From: an uncultured candidate division Zixibacteria bacterium
GTDB taxonomy: Bacteria > Zixibacteria > MSB-5A5 > RBG-16-43-9
Direction of reading: 5' to 3'
DNA length: 64,000 bases
NCBI GenBank assembly: GCA_963713865.1
Contig: OY970208.1
Location: 480,001 to 544,000, forward strand
The position numbers and the translations under genes were made by a program. The notes below the pieces were generated by a model. The model was not told where the DNA came from. It saw nothing but the letters and a program-made list of their open reading frames with translations, and searched no databases. This document shows positions 4,158 to 49,424 of the stretch, piece by piece. The first letter of the stretch is position 1; each line of letters begins with the position of its first letter.

Positions 4158-4930
4158 ATGAATAAGAAAACCAGATCTCTTTTTATCGCCGGCAACTGGA
4201 AGATGTACAAGGACCATAAGGAAGGCTCAATCTTAGCTTCTGCCCTTAAGGAAAGATTAGCTGATGTATCCACCATCCAGATGGTTTTATGTCCACCTTT
4301 CACCTCTTTACAGGCAGTGTCTTCAGCTATAGAAGGCTCCGCTTTCTTTTTAGGTGCTCAAAATGTTCACTGGGAAAAGGAGGGTGCTTTTACCGGAGAT
4401 ATTCCTCTCAGATGCTTTTATCTTTAGGCTGTAAATATGTTATAATCGGTCATTCGGAAAGGAGACTTCTCTTTCATGAAAGTAACAAAATAGTCAACCT
4501 TAAGCTCAAAACTGCTTTAAAAGAAGGGTTAATCCCGATTCTATGTGTAGGCGAGACCCTGCAGGAAAGGGAAAAGGGGAAAACCGAAGAGATAGTCGAA
4601 GAACAGCTCAAAGGCGCTTTTGAGGATTTGACTCCCGAGGATGTGGGGAAGATAGTTTTAGCTTATGAGCCAGTCTGGGCTATAGGAACAGGCAAAACCG
4701 CCACTCCCAAGCAAGCCAATGACATGCACCTTTTCATCCGTAGAAAACTTGAGGAAAGATATGCTCAGGAGATAGCTGCGAACAAGAGAATACTTTACGG
4801 AGGTTCGGTAAAACCGGAGAATGCTAAAGACCTTTTAAAGGAACAGGAGATAGATGGTGCCCTGGTCGGGGGCGCAAGTTTAGATCTGGATTCTTTTGAG
4901 AAGATAGTGAGAAGTGGTTTGGATTTGTAG
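4158..4930 (+). CDS. tpiA: Triosephosphate isomerase with a 1-bp frameshift at about 4400 (probably a sequence error)
   Basis: IAGNWKM...GAFTG in one frame; IIGHSERR, AYEPVWAIGTG, YGGSVK and LVGGASL in the next frame. Confidence 0.92.
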
Positions 4931-42481: not shown

Positions 42482-43075
42482 ATGAAGAAGGTTAGTTTAG
42501 TAACAAGCTTGACTTTCCTTTTTATCCTTCTGGTTTTCTCCTGGTCTTATGCCCAGATGGAGATGGGTAAGGGATGTTCTCACGAGATGAAGATGATGGG
42601 TGAGGAAAAGATGATGTCCCCGGAAAAGTGCGGAATGCCTCAGGAAGGGATGATGTCTCAGATGGGATGCTGCAAGATGGGTATGGAGAAAGGGATGAAG
42701 ATGTGCGGGATGATGGGAGAGAAAGAGGAGATGGGATGCTGTAAAATGGAGTTTTTCCTCTGCTGTAAAGATAAATTAGGTCTCACTGATAAACAGATCG
42801 AAAGCTTAAAATCCATGAAAATGGATTTTATGAAGACGAAAATCAAGATGGAGGCTGACCTGCAGATAGCCCATTTAGAGCTTAAAACCCTTATGGCTGA
42901 TGACAAAGCCAGCTTGAAAGACATAGAGGCTAAGTTAAGGGCAGTGGAAAAGATGAAAACAGATATGAAGATTACCCATCTGAAAGCTTTCAGAGATGCC
43001 AAAGCGCTTTTGACTCCGGAGCAGAAGGAAAAGATGATGAAGTGTGATAAAATGAAATCAGAAGAAGAAGATTAA
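42482..43075 (+). CDS. Spy/CpxP/ZraP-family periplasmic protein with a Met/Cys-rich N-terminus
   Basis: Signal peptide; LTxxQ motifs (LGLTDKQ, LLTPEQK). Confidence 0.8.
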   Translation: MKKVSLVTSLTFLFILLVFSWSYAQMEMGKGCSHEMKMMGEEKMMSPEKCGMPQEGMMSQMGCCKMGMEKGMKMCGMMGEKEEMGCCKMEFFLCCKDKLGLTDKQIESLKSMKMDFMKTKIKMEADLQIAHLELKTLMADDKASLKDIEAKLRAVEKMKTDMKITHLKAFRDAKALLTPEQKEKMMKCDKMKSEEED

Positions 43076-43114
43076 AGAATTTCTATTGTAATAGATCGAG
43101 GTGGTTTTGAAATT

Positions 43115-43145
43115 TCAGCCAGGTTTTCCCTGGCTGATTTTTTTT
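43115..43145 (+). terminator. Intrinsic terminator
   Basis: TCAGCCAGG-N5-CCTGGCTGA followed by a T run. Confidence 0.75.
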
Positions 43146-43157
43146 GTTTTAAAAAAA

Positions 43158-43494
43158 GTCATTGCGAACCCGCCAAAGATAGGGTGAAGCAATCCTTTAA
43201 CTACTGGTTAATGGATTGCTTCGTCGTCCGCCTACGGCGAGACTCCCCGCAATGACAACATTGTTTAAATTCTGGGTGCAGGAGTTCAACTCCTGCACCA
43301 GCAGAAGGAGAGGGAATGTAGGGGTAATTTCCAACTGGATCCAATTGGACATGAATTGCCCTTACCATGTTTTTGCCCAAACAATCAAGGCAGACACGCG
43401 GTTCGACAGGCTCACCGTCCTGACTGTTCGATTGTGCTCACAGTCCCTGAGCGAAGTCGAAGGAAGCAAGGTCGAAGGAGGGGTCTGCCCCTAC
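43158..43494. repeat. Mixed palindromic element cluster (family B element, GTAG REPs, TTCGACAGGCTCA/TGAGCGAAGTCGAA element)
   Basis: GTCATTGCGA..CGCAATGACA 43158-43257; GGTGCAGGAGTTCAACTCCTGCACC; GTAGGGGTAATT..AATTGCCCTTAC. Confidence 0.75.
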
Positions 43495-43517
43495 AAAAAT
43501 TTTCTCAAAGATCTGTA

Positions 43518-43545
43518 TTGACAACACCTGTTCACTTTATATATT
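43518..43545 (+). promoter_or_regulatory. sigma70-like promoter upstream of the cassette array (Pc-like)
   Basis: TTGACA-N16-TATATT. Confidence 0.6.
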
Positions 43546-43734
43546 GTTACTCTGAAACAAGAAGGCGTTGGGTGGCAAAAATTAGCAGAGGTAAAAATTT
43601 CTGGCACTTCAGCCAGAGTTGGTATAAACGAAACAGGTTCGTCTACAACCCCAAAATCAGGGGTATATACGCAATAATTGCGGATATAAACGAGTTAAGT
43701 GAAATGGCAACTTAAAATTAAAAGGTGATATGAA

Positions 43735-44532
43735 ATGAAGAAACTGATAGAAGAAGCTAAAAAAACAGTGGTCTTTCTTGGGAAAATTGACCGTGAAGGA
43801 AAGCCACAATTTTATGCTACTGGATTTTTGGTTGGTGTCCAAAATATTTATCATCTTCTTACCGCAAGACATGTAGTTACAGATAGGGAAACTGGCGAGT
43901 TGCAGGATGACAAAATGCTTGCATTCTTTAACTCGAAAGATGGTAGAATCACCTCACGTTCTATAAAAGATATAAAGAGAAATTTTAACGTCAATTGGAT
44001 ATTCCATCAGAATGCAGAAGTTGATATTGCTATAATTCCTTTTGGTTTAGATCCCCAGAAAGACGATGTAAAAGTAATTCCTGATAACTTGTTCCTTTCT
44101 CCAGATAGCCTATTTGAGCTTTATGATGTTTTCTTTTTATCCTATCAACCGGGTGTCAAATTTCAGAAAGGAATTGCTCCTATCATTAGAGGCGGGACAA
44201 TAAGCACAATCAACGAAGACAAAACATTTTATGTAGATGCCTTTGCTTTCCCAGGAAATAGCGGTAGCCCTGTTTTTCTCAAACCTTCGCCTATAAGGTT
44301 TGACGAGAAAGGAATTTCTATTGGCGGGGATCCGTTAGGTGGCAAATTTATAGGAATTGTTGGGGAATATATTCCATATCAAGAGGTGGCTATAAGCACT
44401 CAGACAGGACGTCCTCGTGTTGTTTTTGAAGAGAACACAGGTCTTTCCAAGGTTTGGTCTGTGACTTTCATAAGGGAGATTTTGGAGTCAAGTGTATTTA
44501 AAGAACAACTTGATAAACTGGTGAAAAAATGA
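43735..44532 (+). CDS. Trypsin-like serine protease (cassette 1), no signal peptide
   Basis: ATGF, TARHVV (His), VDIAI (Asp) and GNSGSPV (Ser). Confidence 0.85.
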   Translation: MKKLIEEAKKTVVFLGKIDREGKPQFYATGFLVGVQNIYHLLTARHVVTDRETGELQDDKMLAFFNSKDGRITSRSIKDIKRNFNVNWIFHQNAEVDIAIIPFGLDPQKDDVKVIPDNLFLSPDSLFELYDVFFLSYQPGVKFQKGIAPIIRGGTISTINEDKTFYVDAFAFPGNSGSPVFLKPSPIRFDEKGISIGGDPLGGKFIGIVGEYIPYQEVAISTQTGRPRVVFEENTGLSKVWSVTFIREILESSVFKEQLDKLVKK

Positions 44533-44545
44533 AGATGGCCACTTC

Positions 44546-44621
44546 ACTTAACAGCGTGTTTGCGGTTCGCTTCGCTCACCAAAATGCTTACGGCACTTCG
44601 CAAACACGCGAACTGTTATGT
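44546..44621 (+). mobile_element. attC-like recombination site 1
   Basis: R'' ACTTAAC ... R' GTTATGT; stem AACAGCGTGTTTGCG/CGCAAACACGCGAACTGTT with unpaired bases; 13 nt after the stop codon. Confidence 0.8.
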
Positions 44622-44794
44622 GCAATTCGAAAACCTGCCTCTGCTTACGCAAAAGGAGACCGTAAATTATGATGATGTTGTTGCCTTCGTTTAATCGGGA
44701 AAGAATGTGGAAAATACGATTAGCTTATGGTATAATTTTTTATTATTTTTATTAAAAGGTTTATTTGAGAATAATAAAAGGATAAAAAGATATT

Positions 44795-45685
44795 ATGAAT
44801 ACTTCTACAATTTCACATGTTATTCAAGGTAATTGCTTATCACGATTTTCAGAAAAATATATTTCTGAAAGGATTGATCTAACTTTTTTAGATCCTCCTT
44901 TTAATCAGGATAAAGAGTACAACTCATGTAATGATAACCTACCAGAATACGAATACTGGCAAATGATGGAGCAAGTTTGCAAAGGAATTAATGAAATAAC
45001 TTCTGATGGTGGGGCAATTTATTTTATGCAGAGAGAAAAAAATACCGAATATGTTTTGCAGTGCTTGCATAAAACAGGATGGGTCTTGCAAAATCTTATT
45101 ATCTGGAAGAAAAAATCTTCAGCGGTTCCATGTTCAAATAAATTTGGTAAACATTATCAGATTATTGCTTTTGCCACAAAAGGTATGTCATCAAGAATTT
45201 TTAACCGTTTAAGAATTTCTCCTCCATTACCAGTAAATTATAAATACGAAAGGAAAAATGGAGTTTACTTAACAGATGTGTGGGATGATATTCGTGAACT
45301 AACATCAGGATATTTTGCTGGGGATGAGGCTATAAGGAAAGAAAATGGAGAGAGGTATCATAAACAGCAATCACCAATTGCGCTTCTTTTAAGAATAATT
45401 CTTTCTTCTACGAAAATTGGGGATACCGTACTAGACCCCTTTGCAGGTACAGGAACGACGTTGGTTGTTTCCGAGCAACTCGGGAGAAAATCCATTGGAA
45501 TTGAGATTGATATTGAAAATGTAAAATGTATTAAAAATCGTTTGAAACGAATTAGTAAATCAGATAATATATCTCGATTTTATAATGATTATATTTATAC
45601 GGAAAATCTGAAAGAAATATGGGATATTGAATTTGCACCAGCTATACCGAAAAAAGAAGAAATGTTAACATTGTTTGGAAAATAA
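44795..45685 (+). CDS. N4/N6 DNA methyltransferase, beta class (cassette 2)
   Basis: DPPF motif IV before VLDPFAGTGTT motif I; IIWKK, TDVW and HKQQSP. Confidence 0.92.
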   Translation: MNTSTISHVIQGNCLSRFSEKYISERIDLTFLDPPFNQDKEYNSCNDNLPEYEYWQMMEQVCKGINEITSDGGAIYFMQREKNTEYVLQCLHKTGWVLQNLIIWKKKSSAVPCSNKFGKHYQIIAFATKGMSSRIFNRLRISPPLPVNYKYERKNGVYLTDVWDDIRELTSGYFAGDEAIRKENGERYHKQQSPIALLLRIILSSTKIGDTVLDPFAGTGTTLVVSEQLGRKSIGIEIDIENVKCIKNRLKRISKSDNISRFYNDYIYTENLKEIWDIEFAPAIPKKEEMLTLFGK

Positions 45686-46515
45686 TGTATTCTATTTATC
45701 ATTTTTTTCAATCCTTAGTCCAGCAAAAACATCTTTTTAAAAAGGTTAAAAAGCTGGATAAATTTCCATTTAATAAGAAACTTTTATCCTGTAAAAATGA
45801 TGGTGTTTTTCCTGATATGGCTATTCGTCTTAATAAAGATAGAAAAATATTTACAGGTGGTGAATTAATAGAGCTAAAAGACAGCGATTCTTATACTGTT
45901 TCATCTTTTAATTCAACCATCCCTTCCAGAAGTAAAAAGATTGGCGATATAATTTCTGGGGTGAATAGTATAATTAAGCAACAAATGGAAGATGCTGGCA
46001 ATGACATTTTCTCTTTACCTATAAGAGATGTATATTATCTTGTCAGAGGAAGAAAAAAGAACCATACAAAAATTTGTCTTATTTATGGCAGTTTTTTTGA
46101 AACAATTAGTATAGAGAACTTGATAAGCCAGTCTTTTTCACAGGTTTTAGAAGAACGATTAAAAGAGAGTGAAAAAATAGTTTCAGATGACTTTAAGCAA
46201 ACTCTTTTATCTATCTTTTCTCAACAGGATAATTTTAGTAAGGTTAGAAATGTAGAAAAGGCATCTGTAAAATTGCGGTTTAGGATTATGACCGAGGTAA
46301 AAGCAGAAGGGAATATATTAAATTCAAAAAAATATCCAGAAATAAAAGATGATACTTTGAATTTTGTTTTACCATGTCATGATGGAAATGAAGAAAATAA
46401 AATAATTGAAAAAGCGGAATATGTTTTTAGTAAAACTGAATTGAACCAATTTAGCATTTTTAAAATTAAACATCATTTTAATGGGTATTTTCTTGTTTTG
46501 CAAATACCATTATAG
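45685..46515 (+). CDS. Putative PD-(D/E)xK restriction endonuclease (cassette 2)
   Basis: FPD...IELK motif; translationally coupled to the MTase (TAATG); AT-rich. Confidence 0.6.
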   Translation: MYSIYHFFQSLVQQKHLFKKVKKLDKFPFNKKLLSCKNDGVFPDMAIRLNKDRKIFTGGELIELKDSDSYTVSSFNSTIPSRSKKIGDIISGVNSIIKQQMEDAGNDIFSLPIRDVYYLVRGRKKNHTKICLIYGSFFETISIENLISQSFSQVLEERLKESEKIVSDDFKQTLLSIFSQQDNFSKVRNVEKASVKLRFRIMTEVKAEGNILNSKKYPEIKDDTLNFVLPCHDGNEENKIIEKAEYVFSKTELNQFSIFKIKHHFNGYFLVLQIPL

Positions 46516-46593
46516 ATATTCGTTTATTTCTGCATTATAATTTTAAAAATAAACTATGGCAACAACATAATTTACGGCAGGTTTTCGAACAGC

Positions 46594-46680
46594 ACATAAC
46601 ATCGGATAAACGGCTCGGCTTTTGCAGAGTTTCGACCCAAATTGCCTTCGGCAACTTCGTTTATCCGCGAACTGTTAGCC
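46594..46680 (+). mobile_element. attC-like recombination site 2
   Basis: R'' ACATAAC ... R' GTTAGCC; stem AACATCGGATAAACG/CGTTTATCCGCGAACTGTT; shares the CTTCG..CGCGAACTGTTA end with site 1. Confidence 0.8.
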
Positions 46681-46711
46681 AAAACTGTTATACTGTAGGA
46701 AGGAGAGAATT

Positions 46712-46882
46712 ATGGGAGCAACAAGCAGTGACATTAAGGGAGGGTACAGAATATGTCCTCATTGTAATGGAAAAACTACTTGCAAGTGTGGGTCATGTGC
46801 TGTTCCTCATCCTGAAGGCTTTAGTATTGTGGTAGAAGGTATTTGTAAGGTTTGTAAAGGATTAGGCCAAGTTCCCAAGTAG
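46712..46882 (+). CDS. 56-aa Cys-rich zinc-finger-like protein (cassette 3); below the ORF-track cutoff
   Basis: AGGAG RBS; MGATSSDIKGGYRICPHCNGKTTCKCGSCAVPHPEGFSIVVEGICKVCKGLGQVPK. Confidence 0.7.
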   Translation: MGATSSDIKGGYRICPHCNGKTTCKCGSCAVPHPEGFSIVVEGICKVCKGLGQVPK

Positions 46883-47061
46883 AATACAGTAGTTTCTGAC
46901 TCGAAGCGGATGTTATCATCCGCATATTTTACTGCCTCAAGGTCAAATTCGACTGGGAGCAAGGCATTAACGTGGTTAATGCACTTAAATAAATATAAAA
47001 AAAGGGGCGACCATAAGAGGTCGCCTCTACACTTTATCTTCTTCCGTCTTACATCTTACTT

Positions 47062-49424
47062 CTAACCTTTTATTTTTTTCTTCTTATCCAGGGCCAGCCC
47101 TAAAACCTCATCCACTGTTTCCACGAAGACGAATTTTATTTTCTTTTTAATCTCCTCCGGGACTTCCTCTAAATCTTTCTCATTATGCTTGGATAAGATA
47201 ATCGTTTTTATACCAGCTCTATAGGCGGCTAATGTCTTCTCTTTTAACCCTCCGATCGGTAGAACCTGTCCCCGTAGGGTTATCTCACCGCTCATCGCCA
47301 GATAGGGCTTTACTGGCCGTTCAGAAAGAAGTGAAGTAATAGCAGTTGCCATAGTGATTCCAGCCGAAGGTCCATCCTTAGGGATAGAGCCGGCTGGAAC
47401 ATGCACGTGAATATCATATTTCTCAAAGAAATCCTCCGGGATCCCCATCTGTGGGAAGTTGAACGCACATAGGATAATGCAGTTTGAGCAGATTCCTTCA
47501 TCACCTCACCTAAATGACCGGTTAAAGTTAAAGACTTCTTCCCTCTCATTTTGGTAGCTTCCACAAATAAAATCTCTCCACCTGTAGAAGTCCAGGCTAA
47601 ACCTGGCACAACCCCAATCTGTGAAGTCCTTTCTAATACCTCCTGGAAAAATTTCGGAGCACCGAGGTACTCGTGTAGATTATCCGAGGTAAGCTCAACC
47701 TTTTTAACCTCATCTGAGGCAACCTTCTTAGCTACCTTCCTGCAAATAGTGGCAACCTCCCGGTCTAAGTTTCTTAATCCTGATTCTTTGGTATAATCAT
47801 TAATTATCTTTTTAAGCGCCTGGTCCTGAAAAGTAAGATTCTCCTCTTTTAGACCATGATTATCCAACTCCTTTGGTATCAGATATTTTTTGGCTATCTG
47901 CAATTTCTCTAAATCCGTATAGCCAGGAAGCTCTAAGACCTCCATCCTGTCTCTTAACACTGCCGGTATTGGATCCAGGATATTAGCAGTGGTAATGAAC
48001 ATAACCTTGGATAGATCAAATGGGACTTCTAAATAATGGTCTGAAAAGGTATAATTCTGTTCTGGATCTAATACCTCTAACAATGCCGCAGCCGGGTCTC
48101 CTCTGAAATCCTGCCCGATCTTATCCACTTCATCTAACATAAAAACCGGGTTATTAGACCCTGTCCTTCTAATCCCCTGGAGGACTCTTCCGGGTAAAGA
48201 GCCGATGTAAGTTCTTCTGTGTCCGCGAATTTCAGCCTCATCATGCATCCCCCCCAAGGAGATACGGTTGAACTTTCTACCTAAAGCCCGGGCTATGGAC
48301 ATACCCAATGAGGTCTTACCAACACCGGGAGGCCCAACAAAGCAGAGAATAGGACCCTTAAGGTCAGATTTAAGTTTTCTGACTGCTAAGTATTCTAATA
48401 TCCTTTCTTTTACTTTTTCTAAATCGTAATGGTCTTCATCCAGCACTCTTTTAGCTTCTTTTATGTCTAAATTATCCTGAGTCCCTGTGCTCCAGGGAAG
48501 GTTAACCAGCCAGTCCAGATAGGTTCTTGAGACTGTATATTCAGCTGCTGCCGGGTTCATCTTGGAAAGCCTGTCTAATTCCTTTAAAGCTGCCTCCCTG
48601 GCTTCCTGCGGCATTTTAGCTCCCTCAATCTTCTTCTTAAACTCCTCAACTTCCTGGGTTCTCTCATCTGACTCCCCTAATTCCTTTTGTATGGCTTTCA
48701 ACTGCTCCCTTAATATGTAATCTCTCTGCATCTTCCCCATCTCAGTTGCAGCTTGAGATTGAATCTTGCGGGAAAGCTCTAAGACTTCTACCTCTTTATT
48801 AAGATAAAGCGTCAGCTTTTTGAGTCTGTCTTTGACTTCTAAGGTCTCTAAAAGATCCTGCTTCTGAGCTAAGGTAATATTCAGGTTAGAGGAAATCAGA
48901 TCAGAAAGCTTACCCGGATCTTCAGTATTCAAAGCGGAGATCTGCAGATCGTCTGGAAGATAAGGAGCCAAGTTAACTACTCTCTTCAAAAGCTCCAGGA
49001 TAGTTCGGTTCAAAGCTTCCATTTCCACAGACTCTTCTATCAGATCTTCCAGGGGCTCTACCCTGGCAGTGAGGAAAGGATCCTCCTTTATGAATCTTTT
49101 GATCTTGATCCTGGTAAGACCCTGAACCAGAAAACGCACGCTCCCATCTGGAAATCTGAGCATCTTTAAAATCGTGCCAGCAGTCCCTATTTTATGGATA
49201 TCATTCGGGCCAGGATTTTCCAACTCCGGATCCTTCTGAGCAAAAAGCCCGATCACCTTCCCTCCCATCAGGGTATCGTCGATCAGCTTGGCATACCTCT
49301 GGTCAGTTATAACTAAAGGGATGATCAAAGAAGGAAAGACTACTGTTCCTTTCAGGGGCAGTATAGAAAGCTCCTCAGATATCTTTTTTATTTCATCCGC
49401 AATTTTAATCTCTTCTTTAACCAA
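47062..49424 (-). CDS. lon: Lon protease with a 1-bp frameshift at about 47447
   Basis: [15 protein letters not shown] and PGLAWT, then HVHVPAG, KDGPSAG (Ser) and GGLKEK (Lys) in the next frame. Confidence 0.95.

Follow-up and report, generated by a model that had tools for sequence, protein, structure and literature searches.

How a row of hairpin-ended gene cassettes comes to stand in a chromosome that encodes no integrase to assemble it is the question raised by a locus of an uncultured Zixibacteria bacterium (GenBank assembly GCA_963713865.1, contig OY970208.1). The window analysed here is the whole 64,000-nt stretch from position 480,001 to 544,000 of that contig, a closed chromosome of 2,723,046 bp with 40.4% GC; five-digit coordinates count from the first letter of the window, positions in kb or written with commas are chromosomal unless assigned to a locus, and G, C and L numbers are our handles for genomes, contigs and loci. 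A preliminary description had read the AT-rich segment between a spy-like gene and lon as a cluster of attC sites lacking an integrase (CALIN), with defence genes as its cargo. The feature is real and integron-like in its logic, but it is not a canonical attC/IntI integron. The locus is probably a copy, without integrase, of an integron-like platform for gene capture that is served by a short tyrosine recombinase, found here in Zixibacteria and with defence cargo. The AT-richness itself is readily seen, with 26–37% GC over 43600–46600 compared to 41–47% in the flanks.

The units are separated by two hairpins on the plus strand, which lie where they had been placed before. Site 1, a non-canonical attC-like recombination site at 44539..44630, consists of TAAC (44549–44552), AG, a stem of 44555–64 against 44599–608, the spacer CGAACT (44609–14) and GTTA (44615–44618), and it is recognised by its fold, by covariation and by scores of 89.4 and 81.6 bits with two site models, R1 and R2. 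Site 2, at 46587..46689 (84.2 and 78.8 bits), runs from TAAC (46597–46600) through AT, a stem (46603–12 against 46658–67) and CGAACT (46668–73) to GTTA (46674–46677), and is kept in G003, whose counterparts (L042/L084) reach 81.7 and 79.7 bits. Both models were built from sites of the window's own type and are no test of attC membership; they find six solid copies in this genome and sites in 17 of the 34 genomes of the order, often as co-oriented mini-arrays. The shared end of the two hairpins was also correctly described: the 12-mer CGCGAACTGTTA closes both, and in the 2.72 Mb of the genome it has two forward matches and no reverse ones.

Among 39 distinct relatives, the site begins with R'' (..TTC-NNN-TAAC), followed by AG or AC, a 10-bp stem, a conserved GGYTCG and a loop that often holds CCAAAT, and closes with the returning stem, six bases (CGAACT, CAGAAC or similar) and R' (G|TTA-NNN-GAAAT). 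Both partners change in eight of the ten stem pairs, pairing holds in 91% of the cells, and the covariation score is 0.473 compared to 0.169 for shuffled alignments (reached by none of 500 shuffles) and 0.05–0.12 with slid partners, though the alignment was fitted to the structural model and is to that extent biased in favour of the structure. The great majority of the sites (35/39) lie downstream of a co-oriented open reading frame (ORF), typically 2–40 nt past its stop codon. A scan of 42500–47500 with Rfam gave chance-level matches only. In the right flank, 46966–46984 forms a perfect palindrome, GCATTAAC-GTG-GTTAATGC, which is kept in the congener G004 (L052, ~4780–4800) and resembles a minimal TAAC/GTTA pair with no stem between its halves. 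A three-site array of the same family at 385.5–388.6 kb (L027/L083; also G004:C19 and G009:C190), with end boxes decayed to TGAT, TTAT and ATTG, is conserved between species beside an ABC transporter and feoB, and looks like a fossil array.

Are these hairpins attC sites? The inverse core boxes of attC have the consensus RYYYAAC (R'') and GTTRRRY (R'), and a canonical attC further has extra-helical bases in the L'' arm and an unpaired central spacer of roughly 5/6 nt. The inverse boxes are there, as ACTTAAC and GTTATGT at site 1 and ACATAAC and GTTAGCC at site 2, and across the 39 sites TAAC and GTTA are paired in 128 of 155 cells (83%). Folding, which had been proposed as the way to find extra-helical bases, speaks against canonical attC: there are none in the 10-bp stem, which has no bulge, and the spacer has 2 nt (AG or AT) on one side and 6 nt (CGAACT) on the other. 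Canonical attC sites do exist in the same genome, at 668.5–668.6 kb, at 671.7 kb and after a SnoaL-like gene at 754.4 kb, with C..A extra bases on the 5' arm and spacers of 5/5–6 nt. At two fixed positions, beside TAAC/GTTA and at position 11 in the extended R stem, the hairpins have A.C on the top strand, where the bottom strand has G.T; this hints, weakly, at folding of the bottom strand.

The cassettes start and end in a way that follows from their sites. Unit 1 starts with GTTAAGTGAAATGGC (43694), which agrees with the reverse complement of 44538–44552 at 14 of 15 positions, and unit 2 with GTTATGTGCAATTCGAAAACCTGCC (44615), which agrees with that of 46576–46600 at 23 of 25, so that both complementarities claimed for the locus hold. 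The hairpin that closes a cassette thus has its second half in the first bases of that cassette, which implies that the unit was once a circle. In 1038 non-consecutive, unrelated site pairs, used as a control, the best agreement was 20/25 and only 0.6% reached at least 17, compared to 5 of 18 consecutive pairs that reach at least 19/25. The rule holds further in G004, in G018:C141 and in metagenome arrays, the last showing the same mismatch at position 10–11. Of the three units described, the first two end in a site of their own, but the third (46675 to ~46900) has no 3' site and is a truncated unit.

Comparison of the spy–lon interval across relatives shows that its content varies. In G004 the lon slot has the same right flank (the shared part begins at 46901) and the same promoter, its leader is 92% identical and ends in ..GATATGAACGA|GTTAGGCGACAT, and the slot holds a 3.1-kb cassette encoding SIR2 (180 bits with PADLOC) and HerA (522 bits), whose own site obeys the start/end rule at 16 of 17 positions; the slot is therefore variable. 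G003 has the restriction-modification (RM) cassette of unit 2, site 2 and the small ORF behind it in common with this genome at 95%, and in G002, which belongs to another genus, the platform is absent beside lon. The RM cassette is found again in L085, 98.3% identical from 44615, the G|TT boundary, but behind another leader and downstream of glnA; that glnA is only 44–49% identical to the one of this genome, so that a distant organism has one and the same cassette at another junction. In G004, L085 and L173/L174 the breakpoints fall at exactly G|TT. Cassettes have been exchanged at the lon slot, strand exchange occurs at G|TT, and the same cassette is present in distant organisms. No public sequencing run holds the whole stretch (best share 0.33), and four groundwater runs from two studies contain the L085-like RM cassette together with many copies of the site and leader families in other flanks. 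Viral contigs gave no match to an exact pattern of the site, a kind of search that recovers at most 12 of the 39 known sites.

These boundaries also bear on another alternative, that no recombination system is involved and that the hairpins are intergenic repeats resembling repetitive extragenic palindromes or terminators, the genomes differing by indels or homologous replacement. It would account for sites that sit just past stop codons, some of them after housekeeping-like genes, and for the vertical inheritance of the 385–388 kb copies with their decayed end boxes. It does not predict complementarity of up to 23/25 between a start and its own end, with a mismatch at a fixed position, nor exact G|TT breakpoints and arrays beside a recombinase gene. 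The boundary data largely refute it, and we give it hardly any chance.

Where did the cassettes enter? A Pc-like promoter sequence, TTGACA-16-TATATT, lies at 43518..43545 on the plus strand, as reported in the preliminary description, and is oriented to read into the array. It matches the consensus at 11 of 12 positions, which in 43000–47200 is the joint-best score, tied with a minus-strand site at 46562–46534, and it is kept in G004, where the segment corresponding to 43510–45 is 91.7% identical by BLAST and lies upstream of the G004 leader. The leader, an attI-like left junction at 43596..43693 (plus strand), contains hairpins at ~43621–43646 and ~43663–43687 and then GATATAAACGA, with the crossover G at 43694. 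Copies of this family occur in 8 of the 34 genomes of the order and, besides the window copy, at 441,104, 448,763 and 1,899,080 of this chromosome, which makes at least four places. They share two hairpin modules, GA(A/T)CGA or similar, and G|TTA, at which the identity among copies ends exactly; hairpin 2 covaries among them (CGCAAT/ATTGCG, CCGAAC/GTTCGG, ACGAA/TTCGT). Cassettes that start at the other leaders likewise end in a matching site (441,177 vs 446,687, 18/20; 448,808 vs 449,636, 17/20), and the leader therefore behaves as a multi-copy attI. The entry junction of the window, GGATATAAACGA|GTTAAGTGAAAT, fits the form ..ATA(A/G)AACGA|GTTA-NNN-GAAAT followed by sites of the same architecture.

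The other leader slots carry cargo of their own. DruA (457 bits) is encoded in a 5.6-kb cassette at 441,104–446,800, along with a kinase-AAA protein and a CARF-like one; the slot at 448,763–449,655 holds a cassette for an uncharacterised 268-aa protein, and in the slot from 1,899,080 the first gene is ParB_N/GmrSD_N-like (L080 and L082 cover these slots). Downstream of the G004 cassette, L052:4991–5037 is a partial second copy of the -10 region of the promoter (..CACTTTATATATTCAAT..), so that repeats of the promoter segment flank the G004 array on both sides. The interval 43120–43500, which separates the spy-like gene from the promoter, is repeat-rich, with segments of 45–110 nt recurring dozens of times in five related genomes, and resembles a family of small intergenic repeats.

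In the available portion of Cury et al. (2016; PMC4889954) a CALIN is defined by at least two attC sites without intI nearby, and the legend of their Figure 2 names EHB, UCS and VTS as attC features. The reading of our locus as a CALIN is right in that there is a site-specific cassette array with no adjacent recombinase, but its hairpins are not canonical attC sites, and the array is more than a bare CALIN because an attI-like entry site and a promoter are retained. The statement that the window has no tyrosine recombinase is also correct: the four PF00589 matches of the genome (753.9 kb, 1125 kb and two at 1580 kb) all lie outside 480–544 kb. The genome has two Xer-like genes, one of them intact and the other split, and also a C-terminal remnant of intI. 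The genome-wide search that had been suggested found no intact integron integrase, the best match to TIGR02249 being 106.7 bits over 69 model positions compared to a cut-off of 265; it did find an intI remnant of 99 aa at 753.8 kb, 230 kb from the array, and canonical attC sites elsewhere, in addition to the six sites of the window's type. The attI beside the remnant matches that of an intact zixibacterial integron in G022. In the remnant region at 753.3–754.9 kb (L001:1345–2640), the intI remnant is accompanied by attI and by a single SnoaL-like cassette, which has a canonical attC; the region is bracketed by ~100-bp direct repeats that copy the end of a CcdA-like gene. A canonical attC array lies at 666.8–672.4 kb.

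These remains invite the view that the locus is an ordinary CALIN after all, built by a classical IntI of the lineage that has since decayed, and that its hairpins are a lineage-specific flavour of attC. The intI remnant 230 kb away with its G022-like attI and one canonical cassette, the array at 666.8–672.4 kb and the frequent intI fragments of the order agree with this view, as do core boxes TAAC/GTTA and a G|TT crossover that are those of attC, and G018 holds both intI and sites of the window's type. However, the count of intI-bearing zixibacterial genomes with a window-type site is 0 of 5, and intI has none of these sites beside it in G022, G018, G167, G192 or G236. True zixibacterial integrons, of which the remnant in this genome is one in kind, have intI, then attI (..CCATATAACCATA|GTTGGGC) and then canonical attC sites, and within this one genome true attI (..CCATATAACCATN|GTTGGGC) and canonical attC with C..A extra bases differ from the leader and the window sites. 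Complete platforms, moreover, carry a short recombinase instead. We regard a decayed classical integron as an unlikely origin of the array. Across Zixibacteria, 7 of 285 genomes exceed the TIGR02249 cut-off, and a search in the order for genes that co-occur with the sites returned only Xer-type genes and scattered intI fragments. Many open frames of 48–124 aa in the order match only the C-terminus of IntI (four in G019, others in G002, G020, G026, G031 and further genomes).

Which enzyme, then, goes with such sites? An example is found in G006, on whose contig C101 the gene of a recombinase of ~270 aa is divergent and stands no more than ~60 nt from a leader-type junction, behind which come three sites of the window's type. 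Its metagenome relatives comprise 13 loci at 39–100% identity; a fourteenth was ruled out at 27%. Nine loci include 286 nt or more of upstream DNA, and in 7 of them model R2 finds window-type sites on the opposite strand directly upstream of the recombinase. Wherever the upstream DNA reaches far enough to include a junction, this takes the form ..ATAAA(C)GA|GTTANNN(G/A)AAAT, for instance GATATAAACGA|GTTATACGAAAT in L169 and GTATAAAAACGA|GTTAGCTGAAAT in L171. L173 and L174 have the same enzyme and do not differ in the left half of the junction, but from G|TTA onward their first cassettes are different. The junction and the site type of the window are thus associated with the short recombinase elsewhere.

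These enzymes have 268–289 aa and lack the IntI insertion. They score 207–222 bits in two stretches on TIGR02249, below its cut-off of 265, and 214–228 bits on the XerA-type model NF040815, around its cut-off. In a tree of 24 sequences they form a clade (100/99) that is sister to four zixibacterial IntI (89/96) and well apart from Xer, with the proviso that the tree dropped sequences without a clean catalytic motif (G236, G067, G114 and the Xer-like gene of this genome; G010 was re-added by hand), leaves out the G006 protein, which holds masked N, and lacks archaeal XerA. The family, a very large one, is named mostly from bacteria of the Candidate Phyla Radiation (CPR); P0003, identical to the enzyme of L165, is named Woesebacteria.

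We infer that this family, and neither classical IntI nor host Xer, built the array in Zixibacteria. The promoter at 43518–45 would read through the attI-like leader at 43596–43693 into head-to-tail cassettes, each closed by a folded site, and exchange at G|TT would be carried out by a tyrosine recombinase of 268–289 aa that is a sister of IntI without its insertion. As no such enzyme is encoded in this genome, the array would by now be immobile, unless an enzyme provided in trans still moves it. The absence of extra-helical bases from the sites and of the insertion from the enzymes may well belong together; MacDonald and co-workers reportedly described, in 2006, a role of the IntI insertion in reading extra-helical bases.

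The host's own Xer enzymes deserve consideration here. The leader could be a dif-like core (arm, 5–6 nt, arm) that the folded sites mimic, with XerC/D-type enzymes acting on both, as they do for integrative mobile elements exploiting Xer (IMEX). Xer is known to act on a folded single-strand site in the case of the CTX phage, the site-rich genomes G004 and G033 hold only Xer-type tyrosine recombinases (two and three, respectively), and the short recombinases are themselves Xer/XerA-like. The junction GCGGATATAA-ACGAG-TTANNNGAAAT resembles a Xer site, and its right arm resembles an arm of the dif-like site at 1,918,426. That site (..CCTATAA TATATA TTATGTAAAC..) lies at the maximum of the cumulative GC skew, ~1.91 Mb. 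IMEX integrate at chromosomal dif, however, and the window array lies at 523.6 kb; there are at least four leaders at a distance from the terminus, and their arms match the presumed host dif poorly, about 6–7 of 11 positions per arm by eye. An intact host Xer-type gene and a frameshifted second one, the latter split into frames of 264 and 67 aa at 1,580,083–1,580,902, give no specific link to the array. Use of the host Xer system seems to us quite improbable.

Several observations weigh against a short-recombinase platform as the origin of the array. The enzyme is absent from this genome and from 283 other zixibacterial genomes (284 of 285 in total), the best match here being Xer-like with E = 1.4e-7, and neither the window nor the rest of the genome has a divergent ~270-aa sister of IntI beside an entry junction. 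The one exception, G006:C101, is a 5-kb contig of a metagenome-assembled genome that is possibly mis-binned, and its recombinase gene holds a masked run of N. Two of the nine informative metagenome loci, L172 and L173, have no site by model R2. Since 17 of 34 genomes of the order have sites without the enzyme, it is a candidate for the enzyme that acts in Zixibacteria, and the canonical intI remnant and cassettes indicate that a classical IntI once worked in this genome and might also have used these sites. Mismatches in the L stem show no strand bias (18 G.T vs 18 A.C). No circular cassette junctions were seen in public runs, which were searched as assembled contigs rather than reads, so that this says nothing either way. 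Finally, 32 ORFs beside such sites elsewhere in the order include about 4 that are defence-like, several that are housekeeping-like and 12 with no Pfam match.

What do the cassettes carry? Cassette 1 (43695..44615, plus strand) consists of a gene for a serine peptidase of the Trypsin_2 type (ORF 43735–44532, 265 aa; PF13365, 45 bits) and its own site; the H/D/S triad, including the GNSGSP serine motif, reads as intact, and the protein matches the PADLOC candidate family PDC-S45 with 63 bits. Cassette 2 (44616..46674, plus strand) pairs a methyltransferase (44795–45685, 296 aa) with a candidate nuclease (45685–46515, 276 aa), and has an internal promoter-like site at 44708–44736. The former is a beta-class N6/N4 enzyme (PF01555, 148 bits; PADLOC MTase_II, 139 bits), and the latter, which has no family match, can be read to contain a PD(43–44)...E63-L-K65 motif. 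With a methyltransferase beside a candidate PD-(D/E)XK nuclease, the cassette is by its sequence a type II RM system. The terminal unit (46675..46900, plus strand) has no site of its own and encodes a Cys-rich protein of 56 aa (46712–46882) with CxxCxGxx and CxxCxGxG motifs, a predicted small zinc-finger protein that finds no match in Pfam, PADLOC or NCBIfam.

The RM pair is an unusually wide-ranging module. Relatives of the nuclease were found in 53 loci (L084–L136) with 56–100% protein identity of the pair, in many phyla and including archaea, the labels running from Nitrospinota, CPR groups and Planctomycetota to Methanosarcinales and Nanoarchaeia. The candidate nuclease travels with the methyltransferase: at the nucleotide level 51 of the 53 loci resemble the window, and the resemblance is confined to the two ORFs (44820–46536) except in L084, which is the contig of G003 and has the downstream region in common with the window, and in L085.

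The claim of defence cargo is borne out for this locus by the type II methyltransferase, the PD..ExK nuclease candidate and the PDC-S45-like protease, but in the site family as a whole the cargo is mixed. The protease, the RM pair and the SIR2-HerA cassette of the sister species mark the slot, in part, as a probable anti-phage island, and enrichment in defence genes is plausible for the leader slots of this genus. ORFs adjacent to sites in the order include GmrSD, a Pycsar-type TIR protein, an OLD-family nuclease, toxin-antitoxin pairs, methyltransferases, GNAT and LysE. To the right of the array, lon (47062–49424, minus strand) is split into overlapping frames of 704 aa (47310–49424) and 128 aa (47062–47448); Lon_C in the long frame matches only profile positions 2–87 of 205, the G004 orthologue has 801 aa in one frame, and the split is either a frameshift error or a pseudogene. 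Together with the split Xer-like gene, it hints at frameshift errors in the assembly.

How does the locus compare with known systems? With chromosomal integrons and CALINs (Cury et al., 2016; PMC4889954) it shares a promoter, an entry site, co-oriented, promoter-poor cassettes, each closed by a folded imperfect palindrome from TAAC to GTTA, and the G|TT crossover with chimeric sites; integrase-less arrays are common among them too, and toxin-antitoxin and defence cassettes occur. It differs from them in sites without extra-helical bases, with a spacer of 2/6 rather than about 5/6 nt and with an R box extended to ~12 bp (TTC..TAAC / GTTA..GAAAT), often to 25 bp, with a fixed mismatch at 10–11, and also in a multi-copy, two-hairpin leader as entry site and in an associated recombinase without the IntI-specific domain. 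That domain is treated as defining and necessary for integrons in the consulted parts of two papers (PMC9668308, PMC8138268). The 'inverted' classical integron of Zixibacteria (G022:C18, and the remnant at 753.8–754.9 kb here) has the lineage, the G|TT crossover and the start/end rule in common with the locus, but it has an IntI of 315 aa or more with the insertion (481 bits), an attI (..GAAACCATATAACCATA|GTTGGGC) downstream of intI and attC sites with C..A extra bases. Defence genes packaged as cassettes are likewise found in phage-defence integrons, although these, in the sections available of the reports (bioRxiv 10.1101/2024.07.02.601719; PMC12614218), are classical IntI/attC integrons of Proteobacteria. 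The platform of the CPR type has the same recombinase family, with a divergent gene beside the junction in the related contigs, the same type of site and the same start/end rule. Here, by contrast, a zixibacterium is the host, with a closed chromosome of 2.7 Mb and no recombinase gene; entry sites are spread over several slots of that chromosome, and anti-phage genes make up most of the cargo. The literature searched, which left aside subscription journals and supplements, yielded no account of this platform and none of zixibacterial integrons.

For the biology of these bacteria, the locus means that cassette logic of the integron type runs here on sites without extra-helical bases and, where an enzyme is present, on one without the IntI domain. 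Integron finders keyed to IntI would at best report such defence islands as orphan sites. The leader, the two intact sites and the candidate enzymes make a concrete set of substrates for testing. The platform extends beyond CPR, to a closed zixibacterial chromosome that has no enzyme and several slots with anti-phage genes, and this, together with a near-identical RM cassette in a distant organism, suggests a cassette pool shared across phyla. A broader and more doubtful proposal, which we put forward tentatively, is that Zixibacteria and at least one Nitrospirota-labelled organism share with CPR a pool of hairpin-ended cassettes, docked at dispersed, promoter-equipped attI-like slots and served by a recombinase in trans, so that defence islands would be built cassette by cassette and site and enzyme would have co-varied. 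If true, it would show an integron before, or without, the IntI domain.

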